In this document: positions 499 to 64,000 of the stretch, piece by piece
Layout of the letters: the number at the start of each line of letters is the position of its first letter
How positions within the stretch are numbered: the stretch's first letter is position 1
From: Chrysomallon squamiferum
Taxonomy: Eukaryota; Animalia; Mollusca
Direction: 5' to 3'
Assembly: GCA_012295275.1 (NCBI GenBank)
Contig: CM022679.1
Coordinates: 26,350,001 to 26,414,000, forward strand
Length of the DNA stretch: 64,000 nt
Made by a program: the position numbers and the translations under genes
Notes under the pieces: generated by a model
Databases searched by the model: none
Told to the model about the DNA's origin: nothing
Seen by the model: only the letters and a program-made list of their open reading frames with translations

Positions 499-3290
499 AT
501 GGCTGAAAGTTGTGTTGTACCATTAATAGAAATTCGAGACGAGTTTGTTATTTGTGAAATTTGTTTAGACTATTTTAATGACGGAGATAAACTACCACGT
601 ATTTTACCATGTCACCACAGCTTTTGTTGTCAATGTTTGACGTCAGTGTGGAAGAATTTTCCAGAAGGACTAACATGTCCCAACTGTCGACAAATATGGC
701 CTGTTCAAAATAATATCGAGAAAACATTTCCACAAAACAAAGTGTTGACAGATTTGGTGGAGTATATAAGAATTAAAAATAATGCTGGAGAAATACTGTG
801 TCAAGTATGTTCCAGTAAACAGAAAGCAACGACCCGATGTTTCGATTGTGATACTCACGTGTGTGAAACATGCACATCATATCACATGAAATTTCCAAGT
901 ACAAAGCATCACAAGACAGTTTCTATATCGCAACTGGTGGAAATTCCACAATCTGAATTTTTCCAGAGAAAGGATATCTGTACATGTCACGAAAATATGA
1001 AAGTTGATGTTTACTGCAAGACGTGCTGTACAGCTGTCTGCTCTACGTGTGCATTCGTGTCTCACAAAGAACACGAAATCTGTAATCTGAAAGATGTCTA
1101 CAACGAGAAGAAGGAACAGATCAGAATCACTTTATGTAAGTTACAAACGTCCATAGAAAAATCTAAATCGTACACTGATAAACTGACTCGCGAGAAACAA
1201 ACATTGGAAGAGACACAAACACAAAGTCTAATGAAAATAGACAAAGCCAGTAAAGCAATCATTAAAAAGATTCAAGATTTGACACAACAGTTGAAAGATG
1301 AAATTGTTAGAAATGTTGACAAACAGAAATGTGATCGAGATGAACAGATAAAAGTGGTGAGTCAGTCGATAAATGAGAAAAGTGAACATCTTCTACACTG
1401 TCAACAAGCCTTGCAGTTCGCACGTCAAGTCGAATTTACTGAAATGTTCGAGTCTCTAGAAAACAAAACTAAACATTTGATTACGTCGTGTGTATTGTTT
1501 GAACTGCAGATGAAAAAGATCAACCTTGGTCTGGAGATATTTCGGGACTTTGAAATGATTTTGACCAAATCAAGACATATCGCTTGTTTCATGCAGAATA
1601 TTGACAAGACAGAGCAGGGTGGTGAAATGATGAGTGGTGTACTCTTACCACAGAAAATCAACGTTCCCGAGATGACGTCAGAAGATTTGGTTGAGTCTAT
1701 TTCAGAAAATGAGAAAAGGTCACTCGGTGCTGAACATGGATGTAGTAAAGACAATACTGAGATAACAGACGAACAAGGTGAATTTTCCGAATATTTCTCT
1801 GCATAAGCATTTTTTGTTTTTACCCCAAATAAACTGCAACTGTCAATTATCTTAAGAATTTAAAAGCTTTATCAAATTATTTTTCCCTTAATTTTGTTCA
1901 TTACTGATTGTTTGTATTTCAGAATATAGAGTTTCATCGGTTATTATTGAATTAACTCTAAATTTTGACGCATTTTTTTTCTAAGGATTCTTCAGCTGTT
2001 TCACTGATTGTTTAAATGTTCGATGTAAAATGTGATAAGGTTTTTTAGGTGCGGGTTTGATGCGGAAAATTCTAGTAGGTCAATACAAAGAAGTGTTTCG
2101 TAAGTAATTTTCATATTTTACAGACACACAGAGACAAATACACACACACACACATTAATATACACGTACACACACACAGACACAGAGGAAATGAGAATTG
2201 CCCCCGACTAGTATAATTAGATGTTCAGTTCAGGGAAAATAACTAATTAATAAAACTTTCCGGATTATTGTTCCTTGTATTGCAGAATTTACGTTGAAAA
2301 ATCTAATATATATTTATGTAAAATATCCCTAGAAATGATGTTATGAATTAATAACTTTATGAAAGTACAAGTTATTGCAAAAATACATTATCATTAGAGA
2401 TAGTTACGTATATAATTTATCTCCTCTTTATCTTTTGTTTATATTTGTATGTTTATTTATTTATTGATTTATTGATTTATTTGTATGTTATTGATTTATT
2501 TATTTATAGACAATGTGGAAGCTAAATTCGGTAACATTTGATTTGTAAAGAGAGGGAAAATATATTATTTGATGTCAGTAGAAAGTAATTCAAAGAAACA
2601 GAGATAATTATAGTTATATATGTATATTTTTATTTTACAGTACCCAGTATACAGTTTAATAAAAGTTATATGAACTGGGAATTTTGTACCATCACAGATT
2701 ATGGCGAATTGATCAACGAACCTTCACTTCAACCTGACACAGAACAAACCATCAAAGTTGAAACTTTTAATGGTGTTTTAGGAAACAAAACGTTTCACCA
2801 TCCAGTCTGTTATTACTGGCAGGTTGACGTTGTATGTAAAGTACTGGAAAATGCAGAACTTGACAAAATAGCAACTCAAATCGGTGTTTGCACAGAAGAA
2901 ACTTATGACGATGCCGATTTAATTTCAGAAAACAGACACGCCTGGTGTGTAAGTGTTGACACCTGCAGCGATCACAATAGTCTGTGTTTAGACGTTCATT
3001 CTCTTGGGGAGGAAATATCTGACAAACCTTTTGCAGATTTTGAAGAGAACAAAGAATTCATTCTGAATCTTGGGTTGCTGCTTGACACAAACAATAAAAC
3101 ATTTCACATTATTCGTTTAAATGAAAATAAATGTGAATACAGCATTCCTGACATTGATGTTTCAAAGCCTCTGATACCACTGTTTGGAGTTTATAGCTCT
3201 GCCATGTTTGATGTCAAAGTAGAAATTGTTTCTGCTGATCAAATGTTTCAAAACGATGAGTTACTCAAGTTAATATTTGACTTACTTTAA
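499..3290 (+). CDS. TRIM E3 ligase copy 1 (type A): RING-Bbox1-Bbox2-coiled coil-B30.2/SPRY-like, 3 coding exons, ~659 aa
   Basis: Exon 1 499-1777 (donor CAAG|gtgaat), exon 2 2049-2099 (ttttag|GTGCG...TTTC|gtaagt; GAGLMRKILVGQYKEVF), exon 3 2641-3290 (ttttacag|TACCC). Frames join without stops. C3HC4 RING (CEIC..PCHHSFCCQC..CPNC), B-box1 (CQVC..CFDC..CETC..H..H), B-box2 (CTCH..YCKTC..VCSTC..H..H), heptad-rich coiled coil, and SPRY hallmarks VLGNKTF..YYWQV, QIGV, LGLLLD, PLIPLFGV. Confidence 0.9.
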
Positions 3291-61500: not shown

Positions 61501-64000
61501 CGATGCCGATTTAATTTCAGAAAACAGACACGCCTGGTGTGTAAGTGTTGACACCTGCAGCGATCACAACAGTCTGTGTTTAGACGTTCATTCTCTTGGG
61601 GAGGAAATATCTGACAAGCCTTTTGCAGATTTTGAAGAGAACAAAGAATTCATTCTGAATCTTGGGTTGCTGCTTGACACAAACAATAAAACATTTCACA
61701 TTATTCGTGTAAATGAAAACAAATGTGAATACAGCATTCCTGACATTGATGTTTCAAAGCCACTGATACCACTGTTTGGAGTTTATAGCTCTGCCATGTT
61801 TGATGTCAAAGTAGAAATTGTTTCTGCTGATCAAATGTTTCAAAACGATGAGTTACTCAAGTTAATATTTGACTTACTTTAAAAAAATTAATGAAATCTA
61901 TTGTGTGTGTTTGTGTGAAACTACCAATTTCAATAAACTAAATGAAAAATAGCTATGATAATATTAATTTTATTTGTTCATTATTACCTTTCTTTAGAAA
62001 TTTTTTATTATTATTATTATTATTAAATTTTACTATTAAATATGTCTTTGTAGTTTCTTTACACGTTTTATCTTCTTCCTCTTCTATTCTGTTTTATTTA
62101 AGTAATTATTAATAAATTGTTTCTTTAACTTCTTTTCATTATTATCGTTCTTATTGTTTGTAATATCTTGAATTTAATATCTAAGTAATTATAAAGAACA
62201 CTAAAAAATAAAAATTGTTTGGCTTCAGGTCATTTCCAATCATATTTTTGGTTGCGTTCGGAGACGAATGGTCGAAAATAATACGTATTCTCCCGTTCTC
62301 AGTAATTTCAATACGGTTTCAATAATTTCAGCATAACACCTTGTTATTCATCTTAACATCAAATGTGCATACAGTGTAAATATTCTTTATAATTGTAAAT
62401 AGCAATAAAACTGATGACGTCAAAGATTTTACCTGTAATTAACGGACGATAGTTCGATATGTTGTAAGCGGCTTGCCCCGTGGATTCTATTCTTTGCGCT
62501 GAATTGACAAATGGTTGTAAGTACCAGTCAAACGACCTGATTTTCACATTTCGAATTAATTTGTCAAAACGTGTAATAATAATAATAATAATAATAATAA
62601 TAATAATAATAATAATAATAATAATGATAATAATAACAACAACAACAACAACAACAGTCAATGTAATATACCAATAACAATAATATTGATAAATAAGTAG
62701 TAAGTAAGTAAATATATTAATAAATAAATAAATACAATAAAAAATTTAAATTAAATCCATTACAGAAATAAATCATGCGAAGATTTTCTTTTATTATATT
62801 TTTATATGTATACAATAGAAATAAAAGTGTAGAAATGATATCTGAAAATTAAATAAATAAACAACATAGGAAAGAAATAGAAAACTAAAGTCGATATTAC
62901 TGAAGATACAAATATATTTGTTGTGTGTAGTTATTCATTTTTTTTAAATTTTCTAATTATTATTTTCTCGTCTGATGTTGTTGTGGTTGTTGCTATTGAT
63001 ATTGTTGTTTTTCTTATTTTTGTTGTTATTATTATTATTATTATTATTATTATTATTATAATTATTATTATTATTATTACAAGCTTATTTATTTATTATG
63101 AATTTGTATTTGTATATATGTATTTTTTTATGTAGAGATGTATAGATATATGTATGCATACATGTATATATGTATGTGTATCAGTGTAAGTATTTTAGGA
63201 CTGAATATTCTTTGTCTTATGTATGTCTGATTAGACAGGACACAAGGGAAGTCAGTGGCACAGGAAGACGACGTTCATTAAGACATCACAAACCGTGTCA
63301 GCTACGAGACTTGAACGCATGCTGCCTGTTCTCCTGCTCTCTCAACTCGGACCTTACCACGCGGCTGTCAACACAACCTTAAAACGTTTGCTCAGCAACC
63401 GAGACTAACCATCACTTCACACGAAGCGTCATTCTTCTATGCTTCTTTTTTTTTTTTTTTTTTTTTTGGTATTATCTCTTTATCTCTGTATTTATTTATT
63501 TATTTGTATATTTTATTTATTTATTTATTTATTTTATTTTATTTATTTTTATTTATTTATTCATTATTTCATTAATTCATTCATCCATTCATTCTTTCAT
63601 TCATTCATTTATTTATTTAGTTTCAGCCATATTTTCTGTACAATATATGTGTATATTTTTTTTTCAATTATCGTTGTTCTTATTCTTGACAGTATCTGGA
63701 ATCTGGTATCCAATAAATTAGGAATGAACTATTTCAACAAGAAATTCTCTTTGCAATTAAAACTAATTAAAGATAAAATTTCTCTGGTATCATTAAAACA
63801 AGGGCTGGACGAGCTGGACTCGGTTCACTCGAGCTGAATGCAAACACACGACTGAACCGAGCTAATTTGTGCGGCAATGTAAACGTCGCTGTAGTATAAA
63901 CATTAATTAAGAATTGGTTTACGATTTTCACACAGTTCATCTCTATTAATGAGAAACAACATAAATTTAATAATTGATTATAGAAAAAGTTTCTTCTTTT
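58590..64000 (+). repeat. Near-identical duplicate of window positions ~1-5460
   Basis: Upstream region, exons, introns and 3' intergenic DNA are collinear at an offset of ~58.6 kb, differing by scattered SNPs, small indels and microsatellite lengths. Confidence 0.93.
59101..61882 (+). CDS. TRIM copy 8 (type A), near-identical to copy 1, ~659 aa
   Basis: Exon 1 59101-60379, exon 2 60644-60694, exon 3 61233-61882. The translated ORFs differ from copy 1 at only six residues. Confidence 0.9.

Follow-up and report, generated by a model that had tools for sequence, protein, structure and literature searches.

Vertebrate TRIM proteins of class IV, or subfamily G (TRIM5/6/22/34, TRIM21, TRIM25 and the finTRIM/btr/hltr families), join a RING, a B-box and a coiled coil (RBCC) to a C-terminal B30.2 domain and, in the accessible text of PMC2533329, PMC3503706 and PMC3137616, form tandem species-specific clusters with pseudogenes and recombination within B30.2. 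As far as their accessible text goes, two of these surveys call RBCC-B30.2 class IV vertebrate-specific and class I, with its COS-FN3-SPRY layout, animal-wide; one of them sampled fly, worm and Ciona (PMC2533329), and the available text of the other is without any 'mollus' (PMC3503706). Here we describe a 64,000-nucleotide window of the genome of the mollusc Chrysomallon squamiferum (assembly GCA_012295275.1, contig CM022679.1, positions 26,350,001 to 26,414,000) that holds an array of TRIM genes. Our best reading is that these genes belong to an RBCC-(filamin)-B30.2 class that is specific to molluscs and arose by convergence with vertebrate class IV. With modest confidence, we regard the array as a local tandem amplification of TRIMs that occur across molluscs and that likely form an innate-immune E3 ligase repertoire, with a front end converted between copies and an older, varied B30.2.

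Each of the described classes shares some of this layout and departs from it elsewhere. Class IV group 2 proteins (TRIM5/6/22/34) have a single B-box2 and no B-box1, whereas the window copies all have two B-boxes. Class IV in general, including finTRIM and TRIM25-like proteins, has no folded domain between coiled coil and B30.2, where three window genes (g2, g5 and g6 below) and some relatives carry a predicted filamin-type domain. Subfamily C (TRIM45, TRIM2/3, TRIM56 and TRIM71; classes VII/X) shares the order RING, B-box1, B-box2, coiled coil and filamin (RING-B1-B2-CC-filamin) and gives the best RBCC match. TRIMs of that subfamily end in NHL repeats or in nothing, in contrast to the window genes, which end in B30.2. 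Class I, or subfamily B (MID1, MID2, TRIM9 and TRIM67), shares the two B-boxes and the terminal B30.2, occurs in invertebrates and includes the best sequence matches of the window B30.2, the MID1 and MID2 PRYSPRY domains. Its members, however, are conserved single-copy genes with COS and FN3 domains, neither of which had a Pfam match in window exon 1, the linkers or the 85 relatives scanned. The arrangement RING-B1-B2-CC-filamin-B30.2 falls outside the classes set out in the accessible text of PMC3503706 and PMC2533329, and we found no description of a mollusc RBCC-filamin-B30.2 class in the literature searched, whose coverage leaves out most subscription journals.

The window is 30% GC, rich in microsatellites and interrupted by one gap. 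Self-comparison and tblastn turned up eight TRIM copies of gene length plus a single relic exon, and tblastn across the window found no coding relics beyond the pseudogene g4 and the piece at 35574-36116. Seven of the eight gene-length copies splice into open frames of 626-697 amino acids (aa), all with three coding exons and two GT-AG introns, both phase-1. Thus, the seven intact three-exon genes and the pseudogene proposed in the initial annotation held up, and of the relics it mentioned we recovered one. The copies differ in the region after the coiled coil, which is of type B in g2, g5, g6 and g4 and of type A in g1, g3, g7 and g8:

499..3290, plus strand: g1, intact TRIM, type A (filamin lost), 659 aa; exons 499-1777, 2049-2099 and 2641-3290; RING ~553-687, B-box1 ~796-918 and B-box2 ~967-1089, then the coiled coil, with B30.2 on exon 3
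8064..10562, plus strand: g2, intact TRIM, type B, 697 aa; exons 8064-9435, 9699-9767 and 9910-10562
~9135-9435, plus strand: filamin-like domain of g2
10650..10849, no strand: scaffold gap of 200 N
20181..22494, minus strand: g3, intact TRIM, type A, 626 aa; exons 22494-21312, 21063-21013 and 20827-20181; shortest linker of the array, B-box1 deeply diverged
25630..27950 (approximate), plus strand: g4, pseudogene, 5'-truncated and without RING; B-box1 of the g3 type followed by a filamin linker of type B; stops in frame at ~25822, ~26636 and ~27634, frameshift near 26025
32330..35212, plus strand: g5, intact TRIM, type B, 694 aa; exons 32330-33689, 34073-34141 and 34557-35212
35574..36116, plus strand: relic piece of a B30.2 exon, frameshifted; 92% similar to g1/g8 at their 3' end and flank
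40156..43089, plus strand: g6, intact TRIM, type B, 696 aa; exons 40156-41527, 41895-41963 and 42440-43089
50591..53942, plus strand: g7, intact TRIM, type A, 674 aa; exons 50591-51890, 52188-52238 and 53269-53942
59101..61882, plus strand: g8, intact TRIM, type A, 659 aa; exons 59101-60379, 60644-60694 and 61233-61882

The tripartite front resembles that of TRIM3 and TRIM28. Pfam RING and two B-boxes were found above cut-off in both of the exon-1 translations scanned (2/2), and these domains align in all seven intact copies, across which all eight RING zinc ligands are invariant; a ubiquitin-ligase role is putative. Searched against PDB, the window RBCC profile scored highest on TRIM3 (71.5 bits) and TRIM28 (69.6 bits, covering TRIM28 residues 13-295) and lower on RING chains of TRIM5 (~21-22) and TRIM25 (28). 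Fish class IV proteins matched the RBCC at 44-65 bits; the TRIM3 and TRIM28 PDB chains had the highest scores, but construct length varies among PDB entries.

Between the coiled coil and B30.2, the linkers of g2, g5 and g6 matched a filamin profile, made from seven relatives carrying Pfam filamin matches, at 16-18.5 bits (maximum of 900 shuffles, 5.9) and, after one iteration without window sequences, at 48-54 bits (shuffle maximum, 9.3). Among the relatives, Pfam filamin was above cut-off in 3 of 85, with 5 more below, and an ESM Atlas search returned Filamin as its first match at 0.85, which we treat as a lead only. The linker-containing alignment matched no filamin chain in PDB, and in the model of the homologue P0001, described below, the linker part is of low confidence and was scarcely probed by the fold search. 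Judged by profile similarity, the type-B linker is a decayed filamin-type domain, most of which type A has lost, so that its absence from g1, g3, g7 and g8 is secondary and the ancestral form would have been RING-B1-B2-CC-filamin-B30.2. A frameshift origin of the type-A linker found no support, the sole clear match to type B being in frame. The layout of TRIM5/6/22/34, to which the array had initially been likened, is therefore not the one seen here: these genes have two B-boxes and an RBCC resembling that of TRIM3/TRIM28, and g2, g5 and g6 add a filamin-type domain.

The identity of the end domain was less obvious from standard models. Pfam SPRY matched four of six window end domains, every one below cut-off, and only 2 of 85 relatives passed, which may be why the family lacks annotation. 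A profile of the seven window end domains recovered 123 relatives from the protein database, whose library holds 50%-identity representatives only. A domain-only profile of 40 sequences was next run against PDB and matched 79 of its sequences, the best 60 of which are all B30.2-bearing chains. The top match was MID1 PRYSPRY (E 5e-12, profile positions 2-186), followed by MID2, with PRY and SPRY both aligned; BTN3, TRIM21 and TRIM5 chains were also among the matches. Evidence on the fold rests on the closest homologue, P0001 from Gigantopelta aegis (217 bits), for which AlphaFold gave a predicted local distance difference test score (pLDDT) of 84.7; prediction from the seven window sequences gave pLDDT 33 and was discarded. 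The P0001 model matched TRIM25 PRYSPRY (Z 19.4, root-mean-square deviation 2.3, 172 aligned), the PRYSPRY domains of TRIM16L, TRIM14 and RIPLET (Z 18-19) and TRIM65 (E 3e-10). Three narrower searches were weak negatives: g6 B30.2 as a single sequence matched nothing in the protein database or PDB, the seven-sequence end-domain profile had no PDB match, and the family profile with the 'longer' length setting matched nothing. Weak exon-3 Pfam matches to ATLF, NDNF, L37ae and TRASH were judged to be chance. We conclude from the MID1 profile match and the modeled fold that the C-terminal domain is, as the initial annotation had it, a B30.2/PRY-SPRY domain.

This B30.2 family carries an additional feature. 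At a predicted hairpin turn, all seven copies have C-x2-H-x3-C (for example at window ~2960-2990), and across 134 domains its first column is Cys in 102, its second His/Cys in 86 and its third Cys in 111; a fourth, downstream column is His/Cys/Asp in 90 of 134. The C-x2-H/C-x3-C motif sits in an insertion relative to MID1 and is a possible zinc site of the mollusc family.

Relatives of the array occur in both gastropods and bivalves. All 29 with a taxon, from a lookup of 30 of the 123, belong to one or the other (Gigantopelta, Haliotis, Mytilus, Argopecten, Ylistrum, Tegillarca, Solemya, Potamilus and Pinctada). The gastropod G. aegis has the nearest named proteins for end domain and RBCC alike, and NCBI names the relatives TRIM56-like, TRIM45-like or uncharacterized. 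RBCC is present in 40 of the 55 relatives of at least 480 aa. Among the 85 relatives scanned, the same B30.2 also follows a CARD in six (P0019, P0032, P0037, P0055, P0062 and P0074), a TIR domain in two (P0057 and P0066) and a sub-threshold Schlafen GTPase-like domain in one (P0061). The CARD and TIR fusions are from abalones, and fusions to other scaffolds were seen in abalones and mussels. Two tandem B30.2 domains occur in P0009, P0023, P0040, P0043, P0052, P0122 and P0123, and several Haliotis rufescens members are on an equally long contig (49,480,045), which suggests a large cluster.

We built a FastTree phylogeny of 137 domains and 208 columns, with three fish class IV domains as outgroup, after excluding three fish isoforms, one fish protein in which no domain passed, and every domain with fewer than 130 profile positions. 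All seven window copies fall in a single clade (SH support 0.993), sister to a clade with the closest G. aegis paralogues (0.997) and then to abalone genes (0.972); none of the database matches in the tree is a one-to-one orthologue of a window copy. The lineage-specific clade anticipated for these copies is thus present. As for the proposed independent, non-vertebrate expansion, the array is lineage-specific and its host is not a vertebrate, but the family is mollusc-wide rather than an invention of this lineage.

The copies are far more alike at the front than at the end. In six copies (g8 was omitted from divergence statistics as near-identical to g1), mean amino-acid identity falls from 94% in RING and 91% in B-box2 to 79% in the coiled coil and 69% in B30.2, where paralogues are 62-75% identical. 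Synonymous divergence (dS) follows the same gradient (0.09, 0.14, 0.19 and 0.40, respectively). Four-fold sites diverge by 0.068 in RING plus B-box2 (95% confidence interval 0.025-0.122) and by 0.206 in B30.2 (0.151-0.262). Because silent sites show it too, the conserved front and variable end pointed out initially, though real as a pattern, largely reflect homogenization of the front.

Other comparisons revealed a mosaic. The 220-nucleotide 5' flanks of g1 and g2 are 98% alike, whereas their first introns, at 68%, are at shuffle level (0.66-0.67); g2 combines an intron 1 that is 92% like that of g6 with a 5' flank 98% like that of g1. All four combinations of B-box1 type and linker type occur, counting g4. 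Identity tracts are present in 4 of 15 gene pairs (p 0.0005), an incompatibility test points to recombination inside the B30.2 exon (p 0.001), and in most pairs intron 2 and the 3' flanks are scarcely more alike than shuffled sequence. Conservation of the N-terminus at silent sites together with this mosaic points to gene conversion of the front, and we conclude that the front end is being homogenized and modules shuffled. Within the otherwise homogenized exon, g3 (22494-21312) and g4 (25630-25750) share a very diverged B-box1 (dS ~2), which may be an old module kept or re-imported and by eye resembles G. aegis paralogues. Nonsynonymous-to-synonymous ratios (dN/dS) of 0.28 in RING and 0.47 in B30.2 are below 1; the open frames are maintained by purifying selection.

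The zebrafish NLR-B30.2 genes offer an instructive comparison. According to the available text of PMC4852459, they share with this family a B30.2 that is mobile among immune scaffolds, and conversion that acts differently at front and end was inferred there from dS; their B30.2, however, is homogenized across groups and positively selected, whereas in the window array it is the front that is homogenized and B30.2 that is older.

To look at transcription we aligned contigs from four runs to g6, two of them RNA runs of one study, labelled metatranscriptomic. Contigs from each RNA run lack the g6 intron 41528-41894 (joint 41527 to 41895); the joint does not occur in the two other runs. In one RNA contig, 95 letters (the 69-nucleotide exon 2 and 26 of exon 1) stand ahead of g6 exon 3, and loose ends of RNA contigs match 30-mers unique to g1/g8. 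The g6 joints and the g1/g8-only 30-mers indicate that both types, A and B, are transcribed.

How might such proteins work? In TRIM proteins generally, the coiled coil pairs two chains so that a pair of B30.2 domains is exposed; when these bind avidly to a repeated target, the RINGs are brought together and build ubiquitin chains. RIPLET and TRIM65 are a precedent for binding an activated host sensor filament. By analogy, the coiled coil of the window proteins would form an antiparallel dimer presenting two B30.2 domains, which would attach avidly to a repeated target inside the cell, be it the surface of a microbe or a filament of an activated host sensor. Clustering would activate the RINGs, and the resulting ubiquitin chains would lead to degradation or signalling. 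As to origin, a filamin-type (TRIM45/TRIM2/3-like) chassis may have gained a B30.2 exon early in mollusc evolution, in an event separate from the origin of vertebrate class IV, and the array would owe its diversity chiefly to duplication, gene conversion and the loss of modules, not to fast change of B30.2 loops. An immune role is suggested by the turnover pattern, by the CARD and TIR fusions of the same B30.2 and by reports of expanded or disease-linked mollusc TRIMs, none of them tied by sequence to the window family. In the accessible text of these reports, TRIM orthogroups of 46 and 35 genes are among the expanded immunity-related families of G. aegis, the source of the nearest named relatives (PMC7895826, whose Fig. 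6a gives gene counts and no architecture), oyster TRIM expression tracks parasite tolerance (PMC9892467), and Aplysia has 22 TRIMs and two RING-B30.2 genes labelled TRIM25/65 (PMC9334734).

Several points weigh against a mollusc-specific immune class of convergent origin. RBCC scores against PDB chains vary with construct length, the taxon lookup covered 30 of 123 relatives, and a fish-rooted tree from which classes I, VI, VII and X are absent cannot test independent origin. TSP1 repeats precede B30.2 in 3 of 85 relatives (P0073, P0081 and P0086, two from mussel), and such proteins need not be immune. The RNA evidence consists of contigs from two runs of a single study. Finally, with our own codon-model code and the six paralogues of this one assembly, we found no positively selected class in B30.2 (likelihood-ratio test statistic (LRT) ~0 in M1a/M2a, M7/M8 and M8a/M8), nor any site class with omega > 1 in either half tested separately or under a multi-hit model; loops are only slightly more variable than strands (2.04 vs 1.79 residues per site, p 0.019). 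Fish btr/hltr and NLR-B30.2 genes, in contrast, show positive selection in B30.2, according to the available text of PMC3137616 and PMC4852459.

These selection results bear most directly on the idea that the genes are TRIM5-type restriction factors in an arms race, in which positive selection diversifies the B30.2 loops that bind viral capsids. A true B30.2 fold, a tandem birth-and-death array, recombination inside the B30.2 exon and the spread of identity among paralogous B30.2 domains would all suit it. We nonetheless consider it unlikely, given that B30.2 has no class with omega > 1 and, in the six paralogues, no hypervariable patch. The same test detected simulated selection (10% of sites at omega 4) in 11 of 12 cases, although weak or allele-level selection could escape six paralogues of one assembly. 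Selection-driven diversification of B30.2 loops was thus not borne out; a TRIM5-like antiviral arms race is not supported, and the restriction-factor label of the initial annotation is plausible, though without its usual signature. The signal we did find lies in the coiled coil, with an LRT of 17.9-21.9, and remains significant (9.9-24.2) when each gene is dropped in turn. It falls to 11.8 when multi-hit codons are allowed, the top sites being multi-nucleotide codon changes, and in neutral simulations on mosaic trees 4 of 32 replicates exceeded 5.99, 2 of 32 reached at least 11.8 and 0 of 32 reached 21.9. Positive selection in the coiled coil is therefore tentative.

Could the array instead have grown largely neutrally, as a non-immune substrate-adaptor E3 in an unstable region? 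A long exon 1 would convert easily while a short exon 3, set between diverged, microsatellite-rich introns, escapes conversion, and the contrast between conserved and variable parts would arise without selection for differing specificities. Silent-site divergence does follow amino-acid divergence along the gene, intron 2 and the 3' flanks are close to shuffle level, about half of B30.2 codons fit omega near 1 under M1a, filamin has been lost in four copies, and a pseudogene and a relic exist. Yet all but one of the eight gene-length copies are intact and dN/dS is < 1, abalones join this B30.2 to CARD and TIR, and the coiled-coil signal persists in part under multi-hit codons; such neutral growth seems to us improbable. 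Very unlikely, in our view, is that the targets of these ligases are not viruses but bacteria inside the cell, endosymbionts for instance, which would be tagged with ubiquitin and cleared by xenophagy. It would fit that the nearest named relatives are in G. aegis, a vent snail that harbors endosymbionts and whose TRIM orthogroups are expanded (in the accessible text of PMC7895826), and that the RNA runs holding g6 are labelled metatranscriptomic, but the family is also duplicated in abalones, scallops and mussels, and those orthogroups are not linked to it by sequence.

A separate question, which bears on copy number alone, is whether g1 and g8 are two genes. Their blocks differ at 50 of 5377 sites (0.9%) and are ~99% identical in exons, introns and flanks, with differences spread uniformly at 0.7-1% (14/1980 coding, 6/802 intron, 8/498 upstream and 22/2097 downstream). 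Contigs of other individuals differ from g6 by a similar ~0.8% and ~1.4% (summed over eight pieces per run). The two genes lie on opposite sides of the 200-N gap, at which the g1-g2 contig stops, and their duplicate extends to both ends of the window. At the gap, CpG observed/expected steps from ~0.6-1.0 on the left to ~0.1-0.4 on the right, and the gene immediately right of it, an FN3-TM (transmembrane) gene, has its 5' part out of view. This step and the missing 5' part suggest that the contig on the left could be out of place or could duplicate a haplotype, and divergence at the between-individual level across a gap means that intact loci may number six. On this evidence, we judge it evenly balanced whether the g1-g2 contig is a misplaced haplotype of the right end of the array, with g1 and g8 as alleles. 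Against it, a very recent segmental duplication would yield the same divergence, and this array has often duplicated.

The FN3-TM gene occupies window 11210-14781 on the plus strand. Only the 3' part of this unrelated, multi-exon gene is in view, within a stretch depleted of CpG. It comprises exons that resemble FN3 (Pfam fn3, E 0.018), one transmembrane exon (~14042-14130) and a short tail bearing a motif of the FxNPxY type; we take it to recall a SorLA/LDL-receptor-type sorting receptor. The TRIM genes, unlike this neighbor, are not CpG-depleted, which suggests that they lack germ-line methylation. Between genes, 43800-48350 and 54040-55460 hold non-coding repeated elements of ~250-650 bp in several copies, probably dispersed repeats given the many joints there in other runs' contigs, and a 57-bp tandem repeat lies at 54141-54462.

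A broader version of these ideas is possible, if somewhat doubtful: molluscs may have evolved B30.2 recognition independently, placing a Pfam-elusive, likely zinc-binding B30.2 on TRIM, CARD, TIR and Schlafen-like scaffolds, with the adaptive change of this array in the coiled coil. If so, this B30.2 family would have been amplified lineage by lineage, a protostome parallel to class IV TRIMs, pyrin and fish NLR-B30.2, and change in the coiled coil would serve the choice of dimer partner or escape from an antagonist, in place of B30.2 loops. The array also carries a caution, in that a conserved front and variable end can arise by gene conversion without an arms race. If our favored account of a mollusc RBCC-(filamin)-B30.2 class is correct, the TRIM-plus-B30.2 sensor design arose more than once, and this mis-annotated family would be a candidate set behind the TRIM transcripts tied to disease resistance in farmed bivalves.

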